Origin: Candidatus Amarolinea dominans
GTDB taxonomy: Bacteria > Chloroflexota > Anaerolineae > SSC4 > Amarolineaceae
NCBI GenBank assembly: GCA_016719785.1
Contig: JADJYJ010000010.1
Location: forward strand, 1-64,000
DNA: 64,000 nt
Direction: 5' to 3'
In this document: positions 2,513 to 23,303 of the stretch, in pieces
Layout: each line of letters begins with the position of its first letter
Position numbering within the stretch: position 1 is the first letter of the stretch
The notes under the pieces: model-generated
What the model saw: the letters and a program-made list of their open reading frames with translations, nothing else
Database searches by the model: none
Told to the model about the DNA's origin: nothing
Made by a program: the position numbers and the translations under genes

Positions 2513-4077
2513 TGATTCCTCTGACTTTGTTCAGCCGCCGGTTCTGACTTCCAGTCGCCTATGGCGCGTTTTTCCTTGTCGAAGGCAATGCCGATCAGCA
2601 CCACCGGTTTGCCGCTGGCGCGGTAGGGCTGATCGTAACCGCGCGCCCGAATCTGATCGAGCGCAACCTGCGCGCTGGTCATCTTGAATTCGATGATGTA
2701 GATTCTGTTGGGCAGTTCCAGCACCGCGTCTATACGGCCATGCGCCATGACCTCTTCGGCGTTCACCTCGAAGCCAAGTACGCTGAGGATCAGATAGACC
2801 AGTGAATGGTAGTAGGCTTCCAGCGGAAGATGAATGGTGTGAGGAATGCTGGCAAAGACCGAATTGAGGATCAGCACAAATTCGGCGATGGAATCCCGGC
2901 GCAGCGCCTTCTGCAGCCTGCCTGTCAAGGAAGATGGAAGGGCGCCTACCCGTGGCCCCAGATAATCCGCCAGCAAGTATTGCCTGAAAGCCTGTGCCAC
3001 TTCGTGATTGGGGTAGCCAAGCCGGTATTCGGTGCCAGCGACAGAGGGCAGTCTCTCTCGAATGGTGAGATAGCCGGTCTGAAATAGCAGGGAGACCGCA
3101 TCTATGTGATTCACGTCGGCCGAATCGAGCAACCGGTTGTCGGCATAGATTTCGTCCAGTTCATAGGCGGCCACCTGGTTGCTGCGCAGGAGTTTGATCA
3201 AGAAACTGGGCGTGGCGGTGGCGAACCAGTGATTCTCGAAGCTCTGCAGTTCGAAGAAGACCAGCGTGGAGAAGGGCACATAGAGCGTCTGCTTGCCATC
3301 CCAGGAAAAGCCGTTGTACCAGAAGCGGATGGCCTCCACCATCTCCGCCCGGCTGACGGCGAAGCGTGCGGCCAGGGCTTCGATGCGGTCGGGGAAGTAG
3401 CGCTCCAGTTCCTCCTGCGTATAGCCGACCAGGGTGGCAAAACGCTCGTCCAGGGTGATGTCGAGCAGGTTGTTCAGATCGGAAAAGAGCGACAGCTTGC
3501 CGTACTTGGAGATACCGGTCAGGAAAGTCCAGTGGATATGGTTGGCCGCGGTGGTCTTCAGCACCGAATAGAAATTTTTCAGGGTGGCGATATGCTCGGC
3601 CACCTTCTGCTCGTTCTCCAACAGGTCGGTGATAGCCCGGTCGTATTCGTCAATGAGCAGAACGATTTTTTGCTCGGCTGACAGGCAGACGATCAGTTCC
3701 TGGAATTTATCTTTGTAGTGTTCAGCCTGCAGTTGAACCTGATGCTCGGCGGCCAGGCGATCCAGGTGATTGGTCAGCGCTCGCTCCAACGGCTGTTCGT
3801 GATAGTCCAGATCGTTGAAGTTGATCACCAGCACCGGGCGCGGCCGCCAGTCAACCTTGTCTTCGATCCAAAGCCCGCGGAAAAGCTCACGATGTCCCTG
3901 GAAGAGATGCTGCAGCGTGGAGACCAGCAGCGACTTGCCAAAACGTCGCGGCCGCGATAAGAAGACGAAGGTTCCTGTGTTGATCAGCCGGTAGATCTGC
4001 TCGGTCTTGTCAACGTAGAGGAAATTGCCTTCGCGCAGCGAGTCGAAGAACTGGATACCGATCGGCAGCTTTTGCAT
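2509..4077 (-). CDS. Predicted AAA-ATPase (PF09820-like) with C-terminal PD-(D/E)XK nuclease domain (PF08011-like)
   Basis: N-terminus MQKLPIGIQFFDSLREGNFLYVDKTE and the FGKSLL Walker-like motif are typical of this family. The C-terminal RIDAVLELPNRIYIIEFK is the PD-(D/E)XK core. Start taken at the internal Met. Stop overlaps the epimerase start in an ATGA arrangement. Confidence 0.75.
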   Translation of the reverse strand: MQKLPIGIQFFDSLREGNFLYVDKTEQIYRLINTGTFVFLSRPRRFGKSLLVSTLQHLFQGHRELFRGLWIEDKVDWRPRPVLVINFNDLDYHEQPLERALTNHLDRLAAEHQVQLQAEHYKDKFQELIVCLSAEQKIVLLIDEYDRAITDLLENEQKVAEHIATLKNFYSVLKTTAANHIHWTFLTGISKYGKLSLFSDLNNLLDITLDERFATLVGYTQEELERYFPDRIEALAARFAVSRAEMVEAIRFWYNGFSWDGKQTLYVPFSTLVFFELQSFENHWFATATPSFLIKLLRSNQVAAYELDEIYADNRLLDSADVNHIDAVSLLFQTGYLTIRERLPSVAGTEYRLGYPNHEVAQAFRQYLLADYLGPRVGALPSSLTGRLQKALRRDSIAEFVLILNSVFASIPHTIHLPLEAYYHSLVYLILSVLGFEVNAEEVMAHGRIDAVLELPNRIYIIEFKMTSAQVALDQIRARGYDQPYRASGKPVVLIGIAFDKEKRAIGDWKSEPAAEQSQRNQ

Positions 4078-4230
4078 GGCGGTATTGTAGCACAATTGCG
4101 TCAGAAGTTGGAAATCACCCTCACGATCGGGGTTGATTCGCATCGTTATGATCTGTATCGTGCGGGTATTCCATCCACAGAAAACAGGTCATCAAGCAGG
4201 CAACCGCACTGACTGCCGCCGCCGAGTGAA

Positions 4231-7200
4231 TTAGGGTCGCCCGGCGCTCGCCACCGACGCCGGCCACCAGGACGGCGTCGGAATGGCCCCGCGGCCCGCC
4301 AGCCCGCTGTGGTTGATGGTCACCAGGCGGTCGCCCTGCGAGGCGCCGACGTTGTACGGCGTCGCATTCGGGTCCGGGCCTTGCCCCACTTCAACCCACC
4401 ACATGTAGACTTCGCCTGACGGCCAGCCGGCGGGAATGCCCGTCAGGTTGACGCAAGCCACGTTGCCCAGGAAGGCCGTCGTGGCGGTTTCGCCGGTCAG
4501 CCAGTTGTAGAGCGCCAGCCGGTAGGTGTCGGTGGCTACGCCGCGCGGGGTCCAGCAGAACTGCGCCGGCAGCGTGATCTCGGCCCCATCCTCTGGCGAG
4601 ACCAGTGCGACATCGGCCACGTCGAAGTCTCCGCCCCAGGCCGTCGCGCCTGCGGTGTAGGCGGCCAGCCGGTTGCCCCACCAGCTCCACAGATACCCCT
4701 CGCCAGGGTTGGGGTCGTCGGGGGTGTTCAGATAGCGCACCGCGTAGAACTCGTCCGCGGTCAGCGCCGGCGCGCCGACGAAGAGATAATTGCCGTTTGC
4801 GGCCGTTATCGTCGCGGCCTGTGTGCTCCAATCATCGCCGTTCCAGCGCCGGAGGTCCAGCCGTAAACCGCCCGCGGCCGCGCCGTGCGAGGTGACCCGA
4901 CCGTAGATGCCATTGGCAGACGCTGTGGCTGTGGGGGTAGCGGTGGGCGTGCGCGTACGCGTGGCGGTCGGTGTGTTGGTCGGCGTGCCCGCGGACGCGG
5001 TGGGCGTGCGCGTGGGCGTGACGGTCGGCGTGCGGGTGCGCGTGGCGGTCGGTGTGCTGGTCGGCGTGCCTGCGGACGCGGTGGGCGTGGCGGTCGGTGT
5101 GCCTGCGGACGCGGTGGGCGTGCGCGTCGGGGTACGCGTCGCGGTCGGTGTGCGCGTGGGCGTGCTGGAAGCGGCGGCGGTCGGCGTGACGGTCGCGGTG
5201 GCCGCGCCAGAACGGCAGCCGAAGTCCTGCGCCCAGTAATGTTTGTAAGTGCTTGCTGCGTTGTAGCCGTAGCCGACGCCAATCTCGCAGACCAGGGGAT
5301 TGAGGAGATTGGCGCGATGGGGCGGGCTGTTCAGCCAGGCATTCACCACTGCTTCGGCTGAGTCCTGCCCCCAGGCGATATTCTCAGCAATCGTGTAGTG
5401 CGGCGAGTAACCGAAGCCGACCAATCTCGTGGTCATGTCACGGCCCAGGCGATCAATGTGGTTGGCGCTGATGTAGTTATACGCCGCCATGTCCCCGGCG
5501 AACCAGGCGGACGCATTGCCCAGGTTGGTCTGTGTTTGCAGCGGCGGCAGGCCGTTTTGGCTGCGCGCGGCGTTACTCAGCTCGATGACCCGGCGCACAA
5601 AATCGTTGCTGGTCGTGGTTGGCGTGGCCGTGGGAGTGCGCGTGGGCGTTGGCGTGGGGCCGCCCCCGCCCGCACGCCGCAACAGCGGCAGATACAGGCG
5701 TGGCGACTGCATCCGGAACCGGGCCGCCTGGAAGCTGGTCTGCTGGTCGAAGCTCACGCGGACGCCGAAGGTGTACTCGCCTTCCGGCGAGGTGGGCAGT
5801 CGCCCTTCCAGTGTCAGCGTGTTGGCGCCGGGCGCCAGCGTGCGCGTGCCGCTCTCGGAGAGCGCCGGGATCGCCTGGCGCGCGCATCCACCAGGATCAG
5901 GCTGTAGGTCGCGGTCACATCCTGCCCCACGCGGCCGGCGCTGCTGGCGGTATTGCTGATCACCGCGCGCAGACGGATGGACGCGCCGGGCGTCAGTGCA
6001 ACCGCTGGATTGCCCGCGCCGTCCGTCACCTCGACCGCGGCCATCTGCACAGGCGAGCAGGCGCGCGGGGTCAGGCCGATGTCCAGGTCCGTCACCGGCG
6101 GCGGTACGGTCACGGTGCGGCTCTGCGCGTCGGCGAAGCAGGGCTTGGCGGCCAGCACGTAGAAGCTGCCCGCTGACGTCTGCCAGCCGTAGCGACCGTC
6201 GCTGTTCGTGGCCTGCGGGTTGAGCTGCCCGGAAAGGGCCGGGTTCCAGATCGCGTCGCCCGTGACCGGGTCGCGCTGGTAGAGCGTCACCACCGCGCCT
6301 GGCAAGGGGGCGCTCGTGCTGGCATCGAAGACCTTGCCGGCCGGATCAATGCAGGCCAGCCGGCCGCTCAGCACAGTCTCGGTCATGGTGACGCCATCGG
6401 ACCAGACGACCCGCTTGGTCACGACGACGCCCAGGGCCGTGTTGGGGATGCTCGCCGCGCCGCGGTAGAGTCCGCCGCCGGAAAAATTGGACACACGGGT
6501 CATGACGCCCAGCAGGTTGCCCTGGCTGTCCACCAGGGTGACGCTGCTCGGCGGGTCGCCGTAGATCGGCTCCTCGACTGTGATGCTTGCGTGTGGTACA
6601 CATGAGACCACGAAGGGATAGTTGGCTGAAGTCACCCCGCGCCAGGTGTAGGGGCCGTAGGTGACGGTGGCCGCGCCCAGCCCGCGGCTGACATCCGACC
6701 GCACGGTGAATCCCTGGGCGAGTACGCCTGCCCGGCCGTTGGGATTGGTCACGGTTACATCGCGCGCCTGGCGCCAGGCCCGCGACCAGCGTTCCGCGCA
6801 CGCGCGCGCGGAAGGGCGGCGCTGTCTCGTCGGGCAAGTGCTGAAGGCCCTGCACGATGCTCGACCCCACCGCCGCCTGCAAGCCGGGCTGGAAGAAGTA
6901 GCCCAGGATGGTGACTTCGACGTTGATGCCCGCGCTGGCTGACGCCGGTTCGATGGCATCTACGATCGGGGTCGCGCCGTCGAAACAGCGCGAGAACTCC
7001 GAGGTGTTGCCGTTGGGGTCCGTGGCGGTGGCCGTCATCTGGTCACCGGCCGGCACCGCATTGACGAAGGTGGCCGAGAACGCGGCATTGCCCGAGGCGT
7101 TGGTGGTGGCCGTAGTTGCGCCCAGGAACGTCCCACCCTCGCCGTAACCCGAAGGATCGCAGGTGGGGCTGGCGAAGAATTCCAGCCGATAGCTCTGCGA

Positions 7201-12366: not shown

Positions 12367-12610
12367 GTATGCGTGCCGCCGTAACTGCTCAGCCAGGCAG
12401 TGAGAATGGTCTCGATAGCGCCCTTCGCGTCCTTGCGACTTGGCGTTATGGTTACAAACGACAAGAAGGTGGTGAAGAGAAGGGACTTGCACTTTGACAA
12501 TCGAATAGAACTTCCTATCTGTTTCGGGCGCAAGCGAGAACGCTGAAGTTACGGTGGCTGAAATGTGCTATCCTGAATAAAGTCATGAGGCGAAATTCAG
12601 GAGGCAGCCA

Positions 12611-12820
12611 ATGAAAGCAAAAACAGAATGGCGAGTACGGATGGAACGCCAAGCCCATCGAGATGCCATGCACAGACTGAAAGCCGCTTATCAGAAATTG
12701 AGTCAAGAAACAGAGCCGAAGGAGGTTCGTAATGAAACAGACAGCTGCGTTGTATGCCCGTGTTTCGACGCAACGCCAGGAAGAGGAGGCCACGATAGCC
12801 AGCCAGGTGGCGGCGATTGA
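12611..12820 (+). CDS. Small basic protein overlapping the recombinase start, possibly a recombinase accessory or regulatory protein
   Basis: AGGAGG lies 7 nt upstream of the ATG at 12611. The ORF reads through the recombinase RBS and start, suggesting translational coupling. Confidence 0.35.
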   Translation: MKAKTEWRVRMERQAHRDAMHRLKAAYQKLSQETEPKEVRNETDSCVVCPCFDATPGRGGHDSQPGGGD

Positions 12821-14307
12821 AGAATGTCCCACCCACGAGGGTACGCCTTGCGAAAGGACTTGTATTTTCTGGACGAGGCGGTGAGCGGGGCGAAATTGGA
12901 TCGTCCGGCGCTGGATCGGTTACGAGACCGAGAAGGTGAAGGCTGTTACCAGGTGGTGATCTGCCTGAGTCCAGATCGGTTGGCAAGGGTGTACATGTTG
13001 CAGGTGCTTCTGCTGGAAGAATTTCGGCAAGCCGGGATACAAATGTTGTTTGTGAACCAGCCTCCGGTGAGCGATAGCCCGCAGAGCCAACTGTTGTTCG
13101 GCATTCAAGGGTTGTTTGCCGAGTATGAACGGGCTGTGATTGCCGAACGGATGCGGCGAGGGCGTCTGCATTGCGCACGTCAGGGAGCAATGGTCAACCC
13201 AAAGACCCCATATGGGTATGATTACGTGCCCAAAACAGGGAGGGAAGGCGGGCGTTGGGAAATCAATGCCGAAGAAGCCAGGGTCGTGCGTCAAATTTAC
13301 GCCTGGTATACCCAATCCGAGCCGATGACTATTCAAGAAATCACAGATCGCTTGAATCGAGACGGCCTCCAACCGCGTCGCGGGAAGTGCTGGCGCAGTA
13401 GCCTGATTGAAACATCCTGCGACAAACCCAATATACCGGATTGGCTTACTACAATCGCACCGAAAAGGTGTATCATGAGGTGGGGCGATTGCGTAAAATT
13501 GGGCATGGCAAGCGTCTTTGCCCGGTGAGTATGCTTCGCCCCACAGAAGAATGGATTGCCATTCCCGTCCCCAGCATTTTGGACAAGGATATCTGGCGCA
13601 TGGCACAAGAACGACTGAAAACGAACCAGCGATTCTCAATGCGCAACAATCGCAACCACCGCTATCTCCTGCGCGGCTTGTTGATTTGCGCCACTTTTAG
13701 CCATACACTCACCGCCCCGCTGGGAATGGCTATTTTTCCTGGCTGTGGCTATGGCGGTGTTCACCGTGCCCCCGATACGCCTGAGCATACCTGCCGCATT
13801 GACGGCAACACCGTTGAAACCCTGGTTTGGAACGCAGTGGTGGAGCTTTTGAAAAATCCCAAACTGATTTCCCAAGCGTGGGGCTGCGATGAAGCTGCCA
13901 ACATCGAGCAAGGTGAGAAAGAGCGGTTGGAAAATCGCTTGCGATCGCTCGACCGTCAGCAAGAACGTCTGCTGGACTTGTACCAAGATGAGCAGATCGA
14001 AAAGCCATCCTACCTGGTGCGCAAACAACGTCTGGATGAGGAGCAAAAAAACATTCAAACGCGCCTTCTGCAAATCGAGCAAGAGGCCAAGTCCGAACAA
14101 ATCAAGCAGGAATTGATCGAAGATTTCCAGCAATATTGCCAGCGTATCCAGGAAAACCTTGCAAATCCCAGCCCGGATTTACAACAGGAAGTGATTCGGT
14201 TGTTAATTGATCACGTTGTTGTCGGAAAAAATGAAATCGTGATCAAGCACATCGTCCCGACCGATGATGATTGTCGTTTGAAACCACAACGTCTTTGCGT
14301 TGAATAA
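12732..14307 (+). pseudogene. Large serine recombinase (resolvase domain + recombinase domain + zinc ribbon/coiled coil), split by two frameshifts
   Basis: GGAGG then ATG at 12732 gives MKQTAALYARVSTQRQ, with the catalytic Ser in the resolvase N-terminus. The frame changes at about 12830, where a GGG homopolymer sits. It continues in ORF 12824-13528 (VFVNQPP..., DRLNRDG) and changes again near 13440 into ORF 13441-14307 (AYYNRTEKV, Cys-containing zinc-ribbon region and a long coiled coil). Confidence 0.8.
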
Positions 14308-15146: not shown

Positions 15147-15761
<615 letters not shown>

Positions 15762-15776
15762 TAGGAGCAAGAAACC

Positions 15777-16057
15777 ATGTACGGCACGATTGCACGGATC
15801 AAAATTGACCCGACCAGGATCGAGGAATTGAAGGCGTTGGGTGACAGCATGGGCGTGGCGCCCGGTCAGGTCACGCTTGCGTTTACCAGATGGACGCCGA
15901 CCCCGGCGAGCTGTTCCTGGTGGCTGTGTTCGAGAGCAAGGAGGCCTACTGGGCCAACGCCCAAAGCCCGGAGCAGAGCGAGCGCTTCATGCAGTTGCGC
16001 GCCTTGCTGCTGGCTGACCCCGAATGGCACGACGGCGCGATCGTCAGCGTGGCTTGA
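15777..16057 (+). pseudogene. ABM (antibiotic-biosynthesis-monooxygenase/Dabb-like) small protein, frameshifted at about 15890
   Basis: [23 protein letters not shown]... continues in another frame as YQMDADPGELFLVAVFESKEAYWANAQSPEQSERFMQLRALLLADPEWHDGAIVSVA*. Confidence 0.5.
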
Positions 16058-16078
16058 CGAATTGATTGGGGGCGGGGC

Positions 16079-16264
16079 ATGGCCCATCAGACGATAGAAA
16101 CCGTTATCGTGGGCGGTGGACAGGCCGGGCTGGCAACCAGCTACTGGCTCTGCTGTTGGGTGTCGGGGACGATGCGGCGTTCATCGCCGAACACATCGCC
16201 GCGCGCTGGGACTGACAGAACGCACCTGCTCAGCCGGCGGCGGCCGCAGGCGAGCGCACGATGA
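16079..16264 (+). pseudogene. N-terminal remnant of an FAD-dependent oxidoreductase (flavin monooxygenase-like)
   Basis: MAHQTIETVIVGGGQAGLATSYWL is a GxGxxG FAD-binding start. The remainder is out of frame or absent. A palindromic repeat follows. Confidence 0.4.
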
Positions 16265-16298
16265 GCATCAGCCATTGATTGACCGAAAGAGTGCTGAA

Positions 16299-16385
16299 CT
16301 ATGCTGCAAGCGGGCACGAATTGCGCCTGTTTCCGCCGGCAGAAGAGTGAAGTCTATTCCCACTTGCAGTATACCTCGCCTGTCC
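16299..16385. repeat. Palindromic MITE/REP-like element copy A (about 85 bp, ends TGCAAGCGGG...CC(G/A)CTTGCA)
   Basis: ctatgctgcaagcgggcacgaattgcgcc...gaagtctattcccacttgcagtatacc. A second copy lies at 58341-58417. Confidence 0.7.
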
Positions 16386-16420
16386 GCGCACAGCGCTAAC
16401 CCTGCGCTGGCCGAAGCGCC

Positions 16421-16870
16421 TCAATCGCGCCGCGGCTGGTCGAGCAGGCGGTTGGTCAGCGCGGGGCCGATGATCATGACCAGCGCGGCGATGGCCCGGC
16501 CGGTCTGAGTCACCGCGAAGATGTCGGCGTAGCCCACCGAGGCGCAGGTGGCGATGTAATAGAAGGCATCGGTGTAGGTGGCGATTCTAGGGTTGGCGTG
16601 TTGTTCGGCGCGATAAAAGGCCCACGCGGCCGCTCCGAGGAATTGCACGGCTGCATCGAACGGGTTTTTCGCGACCCAGTCCAAGAGCCGCGCCTCGACA
16701 TGCGTCTTGCGCGCCTGCAGAGACTGCAAGGTGGCTCCGAGATCAGCGCCCGAAACGCCCAGCCACGTCTGCAACAGATCAGGCGCCGGCGTTGGCGTGC
16801 TGGCGGATGCTGCCGGCAGCCGGCGCAGTAAATCGGTCAGCGCTTGCTCTTGTTCTGGGGTCAGCGCCAT
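16421..16870 (-). CDS. Small 2-TM ion-channel family protein (K+-channel pore fold, filter SVGYAD)
   Basis: YYIATCASVGYADIFAVTQTGRAIAALVMIIGP is a pore helix, filter and TM2. It is the last gene of the flotillin operon. Confidence 0.6.
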   Translation of the reverse strand: MALTPEQEQALTDLLRRLPAASASTPTPAPDLLQTWLGVSGADLGATLQSLQARKTHVEARLLDWVAKNPFDAAVQFLGAAAWAFYRAEQHANPRIATYTDAFYYIATCASVGYADIFAVTQTGRAIAALVMIIGPALTNRLLDQPRRD

Positions 16871-17519
16871 GATGATTCCTCGGTCCTCGGTCGCGTCTGC
16901 GCCACTTCGCGGCGGGCTGCAATGCGGTCCTCAGCCTGGGCGATCTGCTCCTGACGCCGGCGCAGCTCGACCTGGATTTCCGCGGTCCGATGATCCTGCT
17001 CGCGCTGTGCCCGCGTCAGCGTTTCCACGGCGCCGGCCGTGCGTTCTCCCACGTTTCCAGGGCCTCGCGCTTTCGTCGCGCCTCAAGCAGGCGGGCCTCC
17101 TGGGTTTGGGCCGTCGCGGTCAGCTCGTCCAGAACCTGGGTGCAGGCCCGCTGCAGCTCTGCCCACTCCTGTACGCGGGCCTGACTTTGTTGCCGTGCGG
17201 CCAGGTGCCGGCGCGCCTGGTCCTCCTCGCCCGCCAGTAGCGCAGCATCCACCGCCGCATCCAGGCGGTTGACCTCGGCCAGGGCGGCTTGCCAGGCTAA
17301 CTCCACGCGCTTGCGCCGGGCCACGGCCGCGTGGCGCTGCGTCTGCAGGTCATCCAGCCGGGTTTGCGCCTCGGCGAGCAGGGCGTTCAGGCGATCGTCG
17401 GCCGCCCGGTCGCGCGACGTTGATCCCCGCGGCCTGTCCGCCCCGGCCTCATCGCCCTCGCCGAACAGGTCCCGCAGGATCGTTTGCCACCACGCGGCCA
17501 GCCATGCCCTCAACTTCAT
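16861..17519 (-). pseudogene. PspA/IM30-like coiled-coil protein, frameshift at about 17040
   Basis: ORF 17016-17519 (MKLRAWLAAWWQTILRDLFGEGDEAG... long heptad coiled coil) continues in ORF 16861-17052 after a frame change. Confidence 0.5.
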
Positions 17520-17545
17520 CGCTCATGACCTCCTGCAGCGACCGG

Positions 17546-19618
17546 TCAATGGGTTGCCATGCGCAGATAGAGGTCCTCGAAGGGCAGGTCGTTGAGCACC
17601 GGCAGCTGCGCCAACGCCCGCTGCGCCTTCTCAACCAGCGTGCGTTCGTCGCCGGACACCTTCTGACCCACCAGGGCTAGAATCTCACCCAGGCTCTTGC
17701 CCTTGACCTTGTTCAAGTCCACGCTCTTCTCGGCCACACGCATCACCTCAGGCACCAGGGCCGCCAGTTCTTCGATGCTGGTGCCCGGCGCCGCGGCCTT
17801 GCCGCTCTCCGTAGCCGCCATGCGCACCAGGCTATCGCCGGCTGGATCGCCAGTCGCCCGGTTGATCAACTGCTGGCCAATCTCCCGCACCGGCTCGGGC
17901 GCGGCCCTGATCACTTCACCGATGCCGTCGGCCAGCGTCACCAGGCGCAGCAGGGAAGCGGCCGCGTTCGGATCGCCGATCAGCTTGATATTCATGGACG
18001 CGAGGGCCGAGCCAAGCGCCTGGGCCTTGGCGATCTCGATGCGTACCTGGGCATCCAGTTGCAGCTTCAGCATTTCCACGCGCTGCGCCACGCCGTCGAA
18101 CGCGGCCAGCGCCTCGGCCTTGGCCTTGGCACTCTCGGCCTCGGCCAGGCCGCGGGCGCGTATCGCCTCGGCCTCGCGCATGGCCGCATCGGCCTTGGCC
18201 TTCATGACATCGGCCTCTGCCAGGCCGACCGCCGACGAGGTCGCCTTCGTGCCCTCCGCGCGCAACTTCGACGCCTCCGCCTCGGCCTGGGCTTGGGTGC
18301 GCAGCGTGTCGGCCTGTTTGAGCGCCGCTTCGGCTTCGGCCGCGGCGATCTCTTTCAAGGCTTTGGCCTGCGCTTCGGCCTCGCGCTGCTTGCGCAGCGC
18401 ATCCAGCTCGATGCGATTCTTCTGTTCGATGACCGCTTTCTGCGCCTCGCGCTCGGCCTCGATCACGCGGATTCTGGCTTCGCGCTGCGCTGTCTGCGTG
18501 GCCTGCACCGTCACCACCGCCTGCGCCGCCTCCTCGCGTGCGGCCGAGACCAGCAGGCGATCCTTCTCGGCGCCCTCGCGTTTTTGCTGCTCGGTCAGAA
18601 CGATGATCTGGCGCTGCTGTTCTGCCATTTCGATGGCCTGGCGTCGCGTCACCTCGGCCCCCATCACCTCTTGCTGTTTGCGCTCATTCTGGATGGCAAG
18701 CTGTTGGTCGCGCTCGATTTCCATCAGCGCCACGGCCCGTTCCTTGGCCACGCGCGCCGCTTCCGATTTTTGTATTTCCTCGTACTCGCGTAGCTCGGCC
18801 TGCGCCTTTTCCACCGCCTGGCTTGTCCGCACCTCGCGTGACTGGGTGGCGGACGCCAGGGCCAGTTCACGATCCAGGTTGAGTCGCAGCCGCGCGGTGT
18901 CGGTATCGCGCTGCTTGATCTCGATCTCCGCGGTGCGTTCGATGTCGTTACGCTCGCGCAGCGCCTGCTGAATGACCTGGGCGTTGGCGCGCGCCACCTG
19001 GGCGCCGAAGACATCATCGGTGCCGAACGATCCCTGCCGCGCGGCGCGCAGGGTCAGCACCGACACCGATTCGAGCACCAGGCCGTTTTCCTCCAGGTCG
19101 GTCTTGAGCCGATTCTGCACCTCCTGGATGAACTTCTCGCGTTCCTGGTGCAGGCTCATCAGCGTGAAGGAGGCCGCCACGTCGCGCAGCGCGCCATCCA
19201 GCTTGGCTTCGACCAGCTGCTTGACCGCGTTGACATCCACCTGCTTGCTGCCGATGGTGCGCGCGGCGTCAATGATACCTTCGACGGTGGGGTTGACTTT
19301 GACGTAAAAGATGGCCTTGATGTCCGCGTACTGCGGGTCTTTGGTGAGAAGGGCGTTGTTTTCGGTGCGTTCGATGTCAATCGCCATCGTGCCCAGGTCA
19401 ACCCAGGTGATTTCATGGATGGCCCGGAACACCCAGGCGCCGCCGTTCATCACCACCTTGGGCGGGTTATTGACCTTTTGCGACAGGCCGCCCGTGCGCA
19501 CGAACGAACGATTGGCCGGCGTTTTGACATAAGAGCGCATGACGGAGCGCACGAGGACCAAGAGGAGCAAGAGCACAACTGCAAGAATCACGGAACCATA
19601 GACAACGGCTATCTGCAT
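17546..19618 (-). CDS. Flotillin-like SPFH/band-7 protein (YqiK/FloT type), 690 aa
   Basis: N-terminal TM, SPFH domain and the very long Ala/Glu/Gln-rich coiled coil (EAEREAQKAV...) typical of bacterial flotillins. Confidence 0.85.
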   Translation of the reverse strand: MQIAVVYGSVILAVVLLLLLVLVRSVMRSYVKTPANRSFVRTGGLSQKVNNPPKVVMNGGAWVFRAIHEITWVDLGTMAIDIERTENNALLTKDPQYADIKAIFYVKVNPTVEGIIDAARTIGSKQVDVNAVKQLVEAKLDGALRDVAASFTLMSLHQEREKFIQEVQNRLKTDLEENGLVLESVSVLTLRAARQGSFGTDDVFGAQVARANAQVIQQALRERNDIERTAEIEIKQRDTDTARLRLNLDRELALASATQSREVRTSQAVEKAQAELREYEEIQKSEAARVAKERAVALMEIERDQQLAIQNERKQQEVMGAEVTRRQAIEMAEQQRQIIVLTEQQKREGAEKDRLLVSAAREEAAQAVVTVQATQTAQREARIRVIEAEREAQKAVIEQKNRIELDALRKQREAEAQAKALKEIAAAEAEAALKQADTLRTQAQAEAEASKLRAEGTKATSSAVGLAEADVMKAKADAAMREAEAIRARGLAEAESAKAKAEALAAFDGVAQRVEMLKLQLDAQVRIEIAKAQALGSALASMNIKLIGDPNAAASLLRLVTLADGIGEVIRAAPEPVREIGQQLINRATGDPAGDSLVRMAATESGKAAAPGTSIEELAALVPEVMRVAEKSVDLNKVKGKSLGEILALVGQKVSGDERTLVEKAQRALAQLPVLNDLPFEDLYLRMATH

Positions 19619-19693
19619 CGTCGGAATCTCCCTGAAACTGGGGCCGGTGGGGTGAGGTGCGCCGGCCTGGCGGAAGCTGTCAAAGAAAAACGT

Positions 19694-20500
19694 TCAGCGA
19701 CCCGCGTCGCGCAGCGGGGGTTGCGCCAGCGTGACGATGTAGCGGCGGTGAACCGGGTCGTAAGTCAACAGGATCACCTCAGAGCCGCGCTTGATGGCTG
19801 CTTCGCCCTGCACGACCGCGAAAATGGTGATCAACGTGTTGCCCGCGTCGCGCAGATGGACCATGCCATACTGGTCGTCCACGAACGGGCTGATGACCGT
19901 GCCGTGGGTACCCACCAGACTCTGCGCGCGACTGGCCGTGGTGCTGATGGGCGGCAGCGCGTGGCCCACCCAGCGCGCCATGCGTGCGGTCACCAGGCTG
20001 CCTATGACCAGCGCGGTCGGCAGCACCGCGAACAGCGCGGGGCCGGGGTACACCCCGGTGGCGCCAGCCAGCAGGCCGTTCAACAGCCAACCCAGCAGGG
20101 CCACCGATTCGAACAGGATCAGTAAGACCACCAGCAGCGGCGCCTTACCCGCGCCCAGGAAAGCCAGCAGCGAAAAACTGCCGGACGCGCCGGCGCCGCT
20201 CTCATGCTCGGCCGCGTGGCCGCCATCCGCCGCGTGATCGAGGTCTGCGCCATGATCGAGGTGAGCGTCGTGATCCAGCCCGGCATCATGATCGAGATGA
20301 ACGTCATGGTCCAGGCCGGCATCGTGATCGAGGTCCGCGCCCTGATCGACGTCCGCGTCGTGGTCTGCATCCCCGTGCGCGTCATCGCCCGCGCCCAGCC
20401 CGGTCAACTGCAGGCCGGCGAGCAGAATCCCCATGGCGAACAGCACCGTGAAAGGCAGGTTATACCAGGCAAAGGCAAAAGCGAGAAGATCACGCAGCAT
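19694..20500 (-). CDS. NfeD-like (YqiJ/DUF1449) membrane protein with OB-fold C-terminus and an internal His/Asp-rich repeat
   Basis: TM helices, a (D/H)HDAGLDH octad repeat and a C-terminal beta-barrel (VISPFVDDQYGMVHL...EVILLTYD). The position directly upstream of flotillin is canonical. Confidence 0.75.
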   Translation of the reverse strand: MLRDLLAFAFAWYNLPFTVLFAMGILLAGLQLTGLGAGDDAHGDADHDADVDQGADLDHDAGLDHDVHLDHDAGLDHDAHLDHGADLDHAADGGHAAEHESGAGASGSFSLLAFLGAGKAPLLVVLLILFESVALLGWLLNGLLAGATGVYPGPALFAVLPTALVIGSLVTARMARWVGHALPPISTTASRAQSLVGTHGTVISPFVDDQYGMVHLRDAGNTLITIFAVVQGEAAIKRGSEVILLTYDPVHRRYIVTLAQPPLRDAGR

Positions 20501-20733
20501 TGCACACCTCAGGCACAGCAGACCCCGTCCGCGCCGACTGACAGAATTTCGACGCCGATCACAGACCGCATTTTACCACCAGGTCGCAGCAGCCGTCAAA
20601 GCAAGTTGAGGACGAGTGCGGAGTTGAGCCAGCGGACGATGTCCCCGCGTGCCGTGGCATACGTGCGCAGACCGCCGGCGTTCCTGTTTGCACAGCACGT
20701 TGATGAGTTCGGTTGTAGACGCTCCGTTTTAGT

Positions 20734-21222
20734 TCAACTCAGTCCCTTTTCAAACATCCCCTGGTAAGGCCCTTCGGCCCCGCAGTGCTGGCAGGGTAGC
20801 GAGACGCCATAGGTGCATTTGTTGCAGCGTTCGCAGTGCCATTCCCGCCAATCCCGACACTGGCCGCAGACCTCACAGTGCCAGGTGCAGCTATCCTGGA
20901 CGACACTCTGCCAGCAAAAAGAGTACCAGTACACCTCGCTGCACCCCTGGCAGGTATAGTCATCGAGCAGCGACCTGAGCGGTACGTGCTCACACCCGCA
21001 CGGCAGTTCGTGTTCCTCTGCCAGCTCCTTCTCCGACAGCTCTTGGAACTCCTCGATATTCTGGATGGCGCAAACAGAAAGGGCGTCAACGTCCACGCCG
21101 TTCAACGGATTGTGGCAGTCGGCGCCGGTGCAGTTCTCGTCGCATGGCTCGTTGTTTTTCAAGCACGCGCAGCGCCTGTTGCGGCAGCCGGTTTTGCAGT
21201 TACAGTGAAATTCCTTCTTCAT
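20734..21222 (-). CDS. Cysteine-rich zinc-finger protein (CXC/CRC-like N-terminal motif + CHY-zinc-finger-like C-terminus), about 162 aa with 23 Cys
   Basis: The N-terminal Cys spacing and the two HCxxCxxC units are laid out under the Cys-rich-protein finding. Start taken at MKKEF after the GAGGAA RBS. Confidence 0.6.
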   Translation of the reverse strand: MKKEFHCNCKTGCRNRRCACLKNNEPCDENCTGADCHNPLNGVDVDALSVCAIQNIEEFQELSEKELAEEHELPCGCEHVPLRSLLDDYTCQGCSEVYWYSFCWQSVVQDSCTWHCEVCGQCRDWREWHCERCNKCTYGVSLPCQHCGAEGPYQGMFEKGLS

Positions 21223-21386
21223 TTCATTCCTCAGTAGTTTTGCACTTTTAACATAGGGCCAGATTGGACGGCCAGCGTTCTCCCGGTTAGAGTTAGGTTC
21301 ATGGTATCTCAACAAGCGTGTCTGGCGAACCACCCGCCAACGTGGCTGGGACCTGACTGGTGGTTGGTGTTGCGGAAACGGGCTGC

Positions 21387-23303
21387 TCAGCCTGGCATGA
21401 ACGGGAAGAACCAGGGCGATGCCTGCACCAGCGGCGTGATGCGCACGACGATCAGGCCGCCGGTGTCAGCCGCCACATAGGCCAGATCGTTCTGCACGTC
21501 CACGCCGCGCGCAGAACCGGGCGCAGCGAACAGGCCGGTGACCAACGGCTGCGCCGGATCGCTCACGTCCACGATCTGCAGGCCGCCGCTGCCGCAGGCC
21601 ACAAAGGCCCAGGACTGCGCCAGGGCCAGGCTGTAGGAATTGCCCGGCAGCGGCATGCTCGCCAGGCGCGCGGGCGCGGTGGGGCTGATGACCGTGGCTG
21701 TCTCCAGACCGACCGTCTGGGCGATGTACGCGACGCCATCGCGCACACGCGCTTCGCCCGCGGCGCCGTCATACGGGTAGGTTGCCAGCAGCAGAGGCGC
21801 CGCCGGATTCGCCAGGCTGAAGATGCGCAGCCCGCGCGGGGAGCGAAAATCGGCCACGTACATCAGATCGCCAACGATGTCCACGCTGCGCGCATCGCGC
21901 AGACCGAGCACGGTGACGAGGGTCGGCGTGGCCGGTTGGCTGACGTTGATGACCGAGAGGCGCGGCCCGTCGGCCACATAGGCCAGGGTGTTGCTGATCG
22001 CCACGTCGAAGGCATAGCCGATCGTGTCGTAACTGCCGAGCAGGGTTGGCTGGCCGGGGTCGGTGACATCGAGAATCTGCAGACCGCTGTCGCCGACCGC
22101 GACATAGGCAAGAGATCCATCCAGCGTGACATTGAGCGGCGATTCGGGCGTGCGATAGAGGCCGAGCGGCGCCGGGTTGGCCGGATCGGTGATGTCCATG
22201 ATCCACAGGCCGTCATCGGCATCGGCCAGGTAGGCGCGAGTTCCGTCAACACGCGTGCGCCGGACCGCGGCCGGTAGATCGAAGGAACTCTCGCGCACCG
22301 GCGCGGCCGGCTGCGACACATCCACGATCACCAGGTTTTGATCCTTGCCTGCGACGAAGGCGTGACCGCTGCTCACCCGCAGCGCGCTGCCGATGGCGGC
22401 ATAGGCGTAGCTGCCTGCCAGCGTCGGCGCGGCGGCGTCCTGGATGTCAACCACTTGCAGCCCATCTTGATCCGCGGCCAGGTAGGCGAACGCGCCGTCC
22501 ACGGCAATTCCCTTGCTGGCGCCGGGAGTCAGCAGGTGGCCGATCTGCGCCGGCACGGCCGGGTCGGTCACGCTGACGATCTCCATGCCGTCCGCGCCCG
22601 CGGCCAGGTAGGCCAGGCCATTGATCACCGTGACCGCTTCCAGGTAGGCCGTGGATTGGTAGGCGCCCATAAGGACAGGGTTGGCCGGATTGGCCGCATC
22701 GAGCAGCAGCATGCTTGTCCCGCGCAACAGGTAGACCATCGTCCCGACCGCTGCCACCTGGCGCGCCTGGCCTGGATAGGCGCCCAACCAGGTCAGGTGA
22801 TCGGCATCAGTCAGGCCGATGATTTGCAGGCTGCCCGTGCTGTCGGTGGCGTAGATACGGCCGGGCGCCAGGGCCAGCCGGCGAATATCACCGCTGGTGT
22901 CGAGTCTGCCGGCCAGCGTAGGGGCCGCGGGTGTGCTGACATCCAGCACCTGCACCCCAGCCTCGCCCAGGGCGACGATCAACAGACTGCCGCTGAGCTG
23001 CACGTCCTGCACCACGGTCGGCAGCGCGGCGCTCTGACCGACCTGCTGCGGTGCGGCCGGGTCGGTGACATCCAACACCAGCACGCGCGGCCCCACGCCG
23101 AGGTACACGTAGGGGCCGGAGGAATCGAGGGCATAGGTGGCGCCGCCGATCTGGCCGATCAACTCGGTGGCAACCGGCGGCAGCAGGGGGCCGGACGGCG
23201 GGGATGTTGGCTGAGTGAGAGGGGAAGCCAATCCACGGCTGGTCCATGCGCCAACCATCAAGAGGGCAACGATGGCCCAGGGAACGAGAAAATTACGACG
23301 CAT
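21387..23303 (-). CDS. Secreted LVIVD-repeat (PF08309) beta-propeller protein
   Basis: Signal peptide, then more than 12 repeats of ...AYVAxxxxGLxIVDVSxPxxP.... Confidence 0.75.
   Translation of the reverse strand: MRRNFLVPWAIVALLMVGAWTSRGLASPLTQPTSPPSGPLLPPVATELIGQIGGATYALDSSGPYVYLGVGPRVLVLDVTDPAAPQQVGQSAALPTVVQDVQLSGSLLIVALGEAGVQVLDVSTPAAPTLAGRLDTSGDIRRLALAPGRIYATDSTGSLQIIGLTDADHLTWLGAYPGQARQVAAVGTMVYLLRGTSMLLLDAANPANPVLMGAYQSTAYLEAVTVINGLAYLAAGADGMEIVSVTDPAVPAQIGHLLTPGASKGIAVDGAFAYLAADQDGLQVVDIQDAAAPTLAGSYAYAAIGSALRVSSGHAFVAGKDQNLVIVDVSQPAAPVRESSFDLPAAVRRTRVDGTRAYLADADDGLWIMDITDPANPAPLGLYRTPESPLNVTLDGSLAYVAVGDSGLQILDVTDPGQPTLLGSYDTIGYAFDVAISNTLAYVADGPRLSVINVSQPATPTLVTVLGLRDARSVDIVGDLMYVADFRSPRGLRIFSLANPAAPLLLATYPYDGAAGEARVRDGVAYIAQTVGLETATVISPTAPARLASMPLPGNSYSLALAQSWAFVACGSGGLQIVDVSDPAQPLVTGLFAAPGSARGVDVQNDLAYVAADTGGLIVVRITPLVQASPWFFPFMPG

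Follow-up and report, generated by a model that had tools for sequence, protein, structure and literature searches.

The 64,000-nucleotide stretch of DNA analyzed here (the window) belongs to Candidatus Amarolinea dominans (contig JADJYJ010000010.1 of assembly GCA_016719785.1). It contains four consecutive genes on the minus strand, between positions 16421 and 20500, which encode an NfeD/YqiJ-like membrane protein (gene 1), a flotillin-like SPFH protein (gene 2), a PspA-like protein (gene 3), and a small potassium (K)-channel-fold protein with two transmembrane (TM) segments (gene 4). Relatives of this channel, whose selectivity filters follow the pattern SVGYx[D/N], were found beside NfeD-flotillin gene pairs both within and beyond the Chloroflexota. 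Judging from the sequences, we lean towards the interpretation that the locus is one operon for a flotillin-scaffolded inner-membrane complex, and that a small tetrameric cation pore is the dedicated client or effector of this complex. The general unit appears to be a three-gene module consisting of NfeD/YqiJ, flotillin, and the SVGYx[D/N] channel, and the Chloroflexota cassette would be a variant of this module in which a PspA-like gene has been inserted before the channel gene.

Conservation of the gene cluster in Chloroflexota

A scan anchored on the channel, with one genome per species, yielded 49 loci, almost all of them from Chloroflexota metagenome-assembled genomes (MAGs; Anaerolineales, Thermoflexales, Ardenticatenaceae, and others). 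These loci were annotated by phmmer and by hidden Markov models built from the window proteins. The complete order of NfeD-like, flotillin, PspA-like, and channel genes on one strand was observed at 35 loci. Ten further loci were on truncated contigs with an order consistent with this arrangement, the channel gene was situated at a contig edge at two, and one locus (L056, Labilithrix) was of a different type. Chance is far from sufficient to explain the arrangement, given that dozens of species share this gene order. The genes flanking the cassette vary between genera, indicating that the four genes move as a unit. In most of the Chloroflexota loci, the channel start overlaps the stop codon of the PspA-like gene or is located within approximately 15 nt of it.

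The four proteins are conserved to different degrees. Orthologs of the flotillin-like protein were detected in all Chloroflexota loci with E-values of 0 to 1e-280, and the conservation of flotillin and of the channel (55–60% identity) is high, whereas the PspA-like protein diverges fast (approximately 20–40%). In 16 loci, a fifth gene directly after the channel gene encodes a canonical PspA (Pfam E = 2e-18; 227 aa in L012, positions 4128–4811). A gene for a receiver-domain regulator is present just upstream of the cassette in eight loci; in L016 it occupies positions 3587–4396 and ends 36 nt before the NfeD-like gene. The window locus has neither the upstream regulator gene nor the canonical PspA gene after the channel gene.

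The channel family beside flotillin genes in other lineages

The Labilithrix locus led to a second channel subfamily, in which the filter sequence is SVGY[S/C]D. In all eight Myxococcota-type loci, the channel gene is divergent from a YqiJ-like gene, which is followed by a flotillin gene (664–708 aa). No PspA-like gene was found in these eight loci. A gene for a protein of approximately 1900–1950 aa follows the flotillin gene in six of them, with DUF3686/AAA/DUF7902 matches in five. Separately, a gene with similarity to PI-PLC X-domain or Rv2075c-like proteins was observed directly after the channel gene in five of the eight loci, with an overlap or a gap of at most 14 nt (L060, 6540–7535; L061, 6576–7583; L063, 7503–8498; L064, 7566–8570; L065, 7521–8516). 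This gene hints that the Myxococcota-type module has a lipid-hydrolysing component.

A profile made from both channel subfamilies was searched against 1.84 billion representatives, and 217 proteins were obtained at E ≤ 1e-10. A metagenome scan with further channel subfamilies gave 80 loci. The order NfeD, flotillin, channel on the same strand was found at 30 of the 80, a divergent arrangement in which the channel gene faces away from the NfeD and flotillin genes at 18, and the order channel, NfeD, flotillin on the same strand at six; 18 loci were too short to judge and four were one-sided. Thus, NfeD/YqiJ-like and flotillin genes adjoin a gene for an SVGYx[D/N] channel in 54 of the 58 informative metagenomic loci, in three arrangements and without a PspA-like gene. 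Pfam searches of sample loci returned YqiJ_N, Band_7 plus Flot, and Ion_trans_2. Because this neighborhood is kept in lineages that have no PspA-like gene, the channel is considered to be linked primarily to the NfeD-flotillin pair.

The small two-TM channel

Gene 4 (16421–16870, minus strand; 149 aa) matched Pfam Ion_trans_2 (PF07885) with an E-value of 3e-8 and a score of 33.8 bits (cutoff, 22.5). Its product is composed of a helical N-terminal domain of approximately 70 aa, TM1, a pore helix, the filter sequence TCASVGYAD, and a short TM2. Since TM2 ends about ten residues past the Gly-Pro hinge, the bundle-crossing gate of the KcsA type appears to be largely absent. When the family profile of gene 4 was compared with the PDB, KvLm, KCNQ2, and KcsA were matched at E = 4e-6 to 1e-4. 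In addition, the pore of the AlphaFold2 (AF2) model was superposed on KcsA by Foldseek with a deviation of 2.5–2.9 Å over approximately 81 columns and with 26–29% identity over the pore. The assignment of gene 4 to the two-TM pores of the KcsA fold thus holds at the level of profiles and the predicted model.

The filter of gene 4 is invariant in 19 aligned relatives and reads SVGYAD, compared with the canonical TVGYGD; the second glycine of GYG is an alanine, and the canonical signature T-[VI]-G-[YF]-G is not matched. Among the best 150 of the 217 representatives, this position is occupied by A in 56, S in 34, D in 13, H in 7, C in 4, and T in 3, so that the glycine is replaced in 117 by one of these six residues, and G is found in 10. 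The filter and pore residues are otherwise invariant across the channel subfamilies, a sign that selection acts on the pore itself.

KcsA and the minimal viral Kcv-type channels share the TM1-pore helix-filter-TM2 fold with gene 4, and Kcv-type channels also resemble it in their small size and short inner helix. The gene 4 family differs from these channels in its filter, in having either an extra N-terminal domain (Chloroflexota) or a C-terminal ERLDAIL helix (other lineages), and in its fixed genomic partnership with NfeD and flotillin. The N-terminal 70 or so residues of gene 4 belong to no Pfam family and were modeled with a predicted local distance difference test (pLDDT) score of 45–70, and the ERLDAIL helix replaces this domain in most of the channels from outside the Chloroflexota.

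The flotillin-like and NfeD/YqiJ-like proteins

Gene 2 (17546–19618, minus strand; 690 aa) matched Pfam Band_7 (PF01145) at E = 4e-15 and 56.6 bits (cutoff, 23.6). Residues 12–323 also aligned with the N-terminal 310 residues of the FloT model in NCBIfam (E = 9e-12), but with a score of 44.8 bits versus an equivalog cutoff of 700. No match of gene 2 to Pfam Flot (PF15975) was obtained at E ≤ 1; the partner flotillins of other channel subfamilies (L066 and L104) do match PF15975. From the FloT score below the cutoff and the lack of a Flot domain match, gene 2 is classified as flotillin-like and not as a FloT ortholog. Weak matches were found to the human flotillin-2 chains 9bq2 and 9l3g. As read from the sequence, residues 1–27 (MQIAVVYGSVILAVVLLLLLVLV...) are hydrophobic and would constitute a membrane anchor, and residues from about 200 to 520 are rich in E, A, Q, and R and probably form a long helical or coiled-coil region, beyond which there is a conserved C-terminal region.

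Gene 1 (19694–20500, minus strand; 268 aa) matched Pfam YqiJ_N (PF21001) over residues 14–164 with an E-value of 1.6e-7 and 32 bits (cutoff, 23). Its product has an N-terminal TM helix, an acidic repeat loop rich in D and H, two further hydrophobic segments, and a beta-rich C-terminal domain. This layout and the acidic loop are kept in 15 aligned orthologs, although the length of the loop varies. Comparison with the YqiJ-like partner of the Myxococcota type by hhalign gave a probability of 97.9 and an E-value of 4e-13, and a beta-rich C-terminal block, LVGxxGTVISP...YGMV.LRD.GG...FA...YD, is shared by all orthologs and the Myxococcota-type partners. An OB-fold of the NfeD-C type was sought in the C-terminal part, which gave no Pfam match at E ≤ 1 and no PDB sequence match; the search of the entire gene 1 sequence against the PDB likewise returned nothing meaningful. 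Gene 1 adjoins the SPFH gene, and every locus with enough sequence keeps this pairing.

The loop after TM1 of gene 1 (20230–20370; residues ~43–95) contains D-x-D and D-H-D repeats of variable length. It is acidic, often His-rich, and of low complexity in every ortholog, and the corresponding region is rich in G, D, and H in the Myxococcota-type partners. This composition suggests that the loop may bind divalent cations.

The PspA-like protein and the frameshift in its gene

In the window, gene 3 is read as an open reading frame (ORF) of 167 aa (17016–17519, minus strand) for a truncated PspA/IM30-like protein, and the frame shared with its homologs ends at 17049. DNA alignment with two related assemblies (L001 and L002) revealed a 2-nt insertion of GA within GAGA (17045–17048, minus strand), where the window has TGGGAGAACGC and the relatives have TGG--GAACGC. 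The displaced 3' part (16861–17046, minus strand) consists of 61 codons and a stop codon in another frame and encodes the C-terminal helices; its translation, ERTAGAVETL...EESSWR, is exactly the C-terminus of P0001. The latter, an intact 218-aa hypothetical protein of Ca. Amarolinea dominans with 98% identity, is the closest database relative of gene 3, and its contig (L001) is collinear with the window with 98.5% identity over 12.6 kb. Gene 3 is intact, with 218 aa, in two Candidatus Amarolinea assemblies of approximately 98.5% identity and in other relatives.

The initial annotation had placed ORFs at 20500–19694, 19618–17546, and 16870–16421, all of which were exactly reproduced. On the other hand, the 219-aa gene 3 that it had placed at 17519–16861 does not exist as a continuous ORF, since a stop codon occurs at 17016; that interval is 659 nt long, which is not a multiple of three, and joins two frames. 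The 10-nt overlap between the end of gene 3 at 16861 and the channel start is present as had been reported.

The family assignment of gene 3 rests on several lines of comparison. All seven aligned family members matched Pfam PspA_IM30 (PF04012), the best with E = 3e-7. The profile of the gene 3 family matched Vipp1/PspA chains of known structure (E = 3e-8 to 2e-7), and its positions 37–201 are colinear with 27–189. An AF2 model of the intact homolog (pLDDT, 83) contains helices at residues 2–19, 34–95, and 99–208, that is, an amphipathic N-terminal helix joined by a disordered linker to a long helical hairpin. All of the top 15 Foldseek matches of this model in the PDB were Vipp1/PspA structures. 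Their E-values (1.6e-3 and weaker) were modest, which is normal for coiled coils; E. coli PspA (4whe) was superposed on the model with a root-mean-square deviation of 1.6 Å over 116 columns. These profile and model comparisons indicate that gene 3 belongs to a divergent subfamily of PspA/Vipp1 (ESCRT-III-type) proteins. The proposal of the initial annotation had been made to depend on a PspA/ESCRT-III-like fold of this protein and on co-conservation of the four genes; both were found, the fold by the Vipp1/PspA profile and Foldseek, and the co-conservation in the complete Chloroflexota loci. The four families that it had assigned also hold according to Pfam, profile, and fold evidence, with gene 3 as a divergent subfamily. 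No equivalog-level assignment was available in NCBIfam for any of the four proteins.

The GA insertion may be an assembly error or may represent a strain-specific pseudogene. A programmed frameshift was also considered and was rejected, since the two assemblies of ~98.5% identity simply do not have the two bases. Within the cassette, gene 3 evolves the fastest, and it is the gene that is repeatedly disrupted. It is also abnormal in P0006 (Anaerolineae MAG, IPM84_20030), where, at 174 aa, it carries a deletion inside the gene and a stretch that is out of frame, and it is split into two ORFs in L024 (7394–7998). No canonical PspA was found elsewhere in the 64-kb window.

Compared with L001, the window shows single-base indels at 15876, 15081, 15020, and 14994, in or beside small genes downstream of the operon. 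One of them alters the ORF at 15777–16097 (106 aa versus 93 aa), and two that are at most 27 nt apart compensate each other inside a gene for an SRPBCC-type protein. These indels reflect strain variation or else errors of long-read assembly, and they affect the trust that can be placed in the frameshift of gene 3.

Operon structure and neighboring genes

The gaps between genes 1 and 2 and between genes 2 and 3 are 75 and 26 nt, respectively. The stop codon of gene 3 and the start of gene 4 overlap by 10 nt (ATGGCGCTGA, 16861–16870, minus strand), with GAGGA located 8 nt upstream of the channel ATG, and the same overlap exists in L001–L008. Shine-Dalgarno-like motifs were found upstream of all four start codons. 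A promoter-like site, TTGACG-18 nt-TAAAAT with a TG extension (20570–20599, minus strand), is situated approximately 70 nt upstream of the gene 1 start. It was the only σ70-like match in the region from 15700 to 21500, compared with 0.5 expected by chance, and by its match to the consensus it is a putative operon promoter. Six terminator-like matches, a number at chance level, were all inside coding regions, and none was in the intergenic gaps. From the common strand, the gaps, the overlap, the promoter-like site, and the lack of an intergenic terminator match, we infer that the four genes are co-transcribed.

The neighboring genes are unrelated to the operon and encode an LVIVD-repeat protein, a Cys-rich ORF, the SRPBCC-type protein, and a recombinase remnant. 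The Cys-rich ORF (199 aa; 20734–21333, minus strand) lies between the LVIVD-repeat gene and the operon and showed weak matches to tesmin/MSL2-type CXC sequences (E ~0.002–0.004) and a CHY-like Cys/His cluster. No gene is called for it in L001, where a 47-aa gene is annotated on the opposite strand. The region 12442–14289 is a 1.85-kb insertion relative to the otherwise collinear L001, with a local dip of the guanine-plus-cytosine fraction to ~0.55. It holds the remnant of a large serine recombinase whose Resolvase match begins at profile position 34, indicating that the N-terminus is missing, and whose frame is split into ORFs at 12824–13528 and 13441–14307. This recombinase was considered as a sign of a mobile island and was rejected, because the insertion is strain-specific and outside the operon.

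Comparison with known systems

In B. subtilis, the pspA-ydjGHI (pspA-samGHI) operon encodes YdjI, YdjG, and YdjH, all of which are needed for the formation of PspA foci at the membrane, and YdjI interacts with PspA (PMC8581546). Like the window locus, it combines a PspA/IM30 protein, an SPFH protein, and membrane partners in one operon (PMC8581546; bioRxiv 10.64898/2026.02.06.704340). However, YdjI is a soluble SPFH protein, whereas the 690-aa flotillin of the window has an N-terminal anchor. The B. subtilis operon has YdjG (zinc ribbons) and YdjH (TPM-type) as membrane partners (PMC11237479), in place of which the window encodes a YqiJ/NfeD-like protein. The gene order also differs, and no ion channel is encoded in the B. 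subtilis operon.

A PspA gene beside those of band-7/FloT and NfeD has been reported for Acidobacteriota (PMC9239133). Ravi et al. (2024) described operons that combine CesT/Tir-PspA with a TM-band-7-flotillin, an AAA+ ATPase, and YqiJ/YuaF, as well as widespread abbreviated YqiJ-flotillin(-AAA+) operons without PspA (PMC11237479). As in the window cassette, a PspA homolog is part of the same operon, and their AAA+ operons resemble the Myxococcota-type loci with the large DUF3686/AAA protein. The Chloroflexota cassette differs from them in having no CesT/Tir chaperone, no AAA+ ATPase, and a PspA-like protein of a divergent subfamily. The sole channel mentioned in that study, a ligand-gated K channel, belongs to a polyamine-type PspA operon that is unrelated, and an SVGYx[D/N] partner is not described there (PMC11237479).

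Flotillin-like SPFH2 proteins have YqiJ and YuaF as their NfeD-type partners (PMC2636767). In E. coli yqiJK and B. subtilis yuaF-floT, as in the window, an NfeD-type gene is located directly upstream of a flotillin-like SPFH gene (PMC2636767); as described, these are two-gene units, whereas the window has four genes. In S. aureus, FloA and NfeD act together on client proteins (PMC11222466). The initial annotation had called it unusual to find the PspA-like gene and the channel gene together with the NfeD-flotillin pair. This does not apply to the trio of PspA, flotillin, and NfeD/YqiJ (PMC8581546, PMC9239133, PMC11237479) but stands for the channel. Operons of PspA, flotillin, and YqiJ are thus already known. 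What is added here is the broadly conserved association of flotillin with a channel: no description of a channel partner of YqiJ-flotillin, or of the SVGYx[D/N] filter family, was found in the literature searched, which covered few subscription journals.

Pairs of SPFH proteins and ion channels occur in eukaryotes, namely MEC-2 with MEC-4/10, podocin with TRPC6, STOML3 with Piezo, and stomatin with ASICs. In these stomatin-family pairs, an SPFH scaffold is dedicated to an ion channel and the relationship is biochemically established, whereas the present case is a genomic association and the channel families are unrelated. For archaea, the regulation of an ion channel by NfeD-stomatin cleavage has been put forward only as a suggestion (cited in PMC13086221).

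Discussion

The arrangement of the genes suggests how the proteins may work together. Beyond the Chloroflexota, the core module would consist of a YqiJ/NfeD-like protein, a membrane-anchored flotillin, and a KcsA-fold mini-channel with the SVGYx[D/N] filter. By analogy with solved SPFH assemblies, the flotillin would form a large oligomeric cage or clamp over a patch of membrane. The mini-channel, whose filter lacks the second glycine and whose inner helix is short, probably relies on its partners instead of a bundle-crossing gate. In the Chloroflexota, a divergent PspA/Vipp1 protein, whose gene is inserted between those of flotillin and the channel, would be added to this core. The cytosolic N-terminal domain of the channel may be the docking site of the PspA-like protein; we infer this role because the Chloroflexota variant, which has the PspA-like gene, also has this new domain of the channel. 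With its N-terminal amphipathic helix and its hairpin, which would polymerise, the PspA-like protein could sense membrane perturbation at the flotillin/NfeD platform, a step modeled on the recruitment of PspA by YdjI in B. subtilis. This sensing would control, or be supported by, cation flux through the confined channel, and the flux might, for example, reset the membrane potential or turgor during bilayer repair. The ion-leak response in a flotillin raft that the initial annotation had envisaged is likewise a putative function. Extending this scheme to the whole family, the SVGYx[D/N] mini-channels may be dedicated and co-evolved clients of YqiJ/NfeD-flotillin pairs, and would then form the first prokaryotic regulatory pair of an SPFH protein and an ion channel, comparable to stomatin, MEC-2, and podocin with the channels that they serve; to this pair the Chloroflexota would add an ESCRT-III-type PspA. 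We put this extension forward tentatively, at somewhat below even chances.

Several observations weigh against the dedicated-client interpretation. The non-glycine filter position of gene 4 could alter selectivity or even make the protein non-conducting. Gene 3 is frameshifted in the window, and this copy of the locus may not make the full module. The Pfam PspA_IM30 score is below the cutoff of 33.9 bits for both the window ORF (19.2 bits; E = 0.001) and the intact homolog (21.4 bits). One of the 49 loci (L043, Ardenticatenaceae) has a lone channel, and four of the 80 metagenomic loci have no partner genes despite at least 2.5 kb of sequence on both sides. Moreover, the 80 metagenomic loci carry no taxonomy and therefore outline the phylogenetic breadth of the module only in part. 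The L043 channel (2758–3210) is situated beside unrelated genes and keeps its N-terminal domain; the genes for its partners may be at another site in that genome.

The channel might instead be mainly a structural receptor or anchor that tethers the PspA-like protein, flotillin, or both, with conduction lost or incidental, by analogy with LiaI for LiaH, PspB/C for PspA, and YdjG/H for YdjI-PspA. Dedicated membrane anchors are the rule for PspA homologs (PMC8581546, PMC9239133), the second filter glycine is replaced in most members of the family, and the extra cytosolic domain of the Chloroflexota channels co-occurs with the PspA-like gene. However, the pore helix, the S-V-G-Y core, the following D/N, the Gly-Pro hinge, and other pore residues are invariant or almost invariant across distant subfamilies, and a mere anchor would need none of them; in addition, the fold of gene 4 superposes on the conducting KcsA, and the channel is kept in lineages without any PspA-like gene. 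We regard a mainly structural role as unlikely, though it is the chief alternative to the client interpretation. It is much less probable still that the locus is a conflict or abortive-infection system, in which flotillin, NfeD, and the PspA-like protein would restrain a depolarising pore until an attack by a phage or toxin sets it free. Small pore-forming effectors are common in defense systems, this strain has the degraded serine recombinase at a distance of 2 kb from the operon, and genes for a giant AAA+ protein and a PI-PLC-like protein are additionally present in Myxococcota-type loci. Against such a role, no protein gave a meaningful match in PADLOC; matches to DndD, JetC, LmuB, and PbeC (E ~0.01–0.2) were rejected as evidence for defense, as they reflect the similarity of coiled coils to SMC-like proteins. 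The cassette occurs once per contig, at a conserved position and with ordinary flanks of the housekeeping type, and the conservation of the channel and flotillin across the whole class fits vertical inheritance and not a defense island. The recombinase remnant, for its part, is strain-specific and does not lie in the operon.

Small two-TM K channels, mostly of unclear role, occur widely among bacteria, and gene 4 might thus be an ordinary channel for K+ homeostasis that is adjacent to the other genes by descent only, with no functional tie. This explanation is already strongly disfavored and is the least probable of all: the genes stay adjacent in at least three arrangements (upstream on the same strand, downstream on the same strand, and divergent) and in at least two phyla, many loci have start and stop codons that overlap or directly adjoin, and the channel family has a filter signature of its own. 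A different question is whether the module is decaying in this genome, with gene 3 a true pseudogene and the other three genes working as a PspA-less module. Because of the 2-nt insertion, the protein ends before the C-terminal helices that are needed for polymer contacts of the ESCRT-III type, and a cluster of substitutions is located just upstream of it; gene 3 is abnormal in two other assemblies, P0006 and L024, and three-gene modules without PspA are common. On the other side, the remainder of gene 3 is approximately 99% identical to intact copies and its displaced 3' part has no further damage, the neighboring genes contain other single-base indels relative to L001, as expected of long-read assembly errors, and the channel gene keeps its own Shine-Dalgarno sequence. 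Decay is thus a serious possibility for this strain, although we rate it a little short of an even chance.

The targets of bacterial flotillins and their NfeD partners are debated, and membrane fluidity, scaffolding, and the stabilization of unfolded proteins have been proposed. A channel family that keeps the NfeD-flotillin neighborhood across lineages and arrangements is a concrete candidate for a flotillin client. If the channel were only a membrane anchor, the finding would shrink to one more variant of the PspA-flotillin-YqiJ operon. If it is a dedicated client, bacterial flotillins would have a defined job, that of gating or confining a cation pore. The family is also of biophysical interest as a natural KcsA-fold pore in which the second glycine of the filter and most of the inner-helix gate are missing. 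In the Chloroflexota, the cassette would provide a direct genetic link between a membrane-repair protein of the ESCRT-III type and ion flux.

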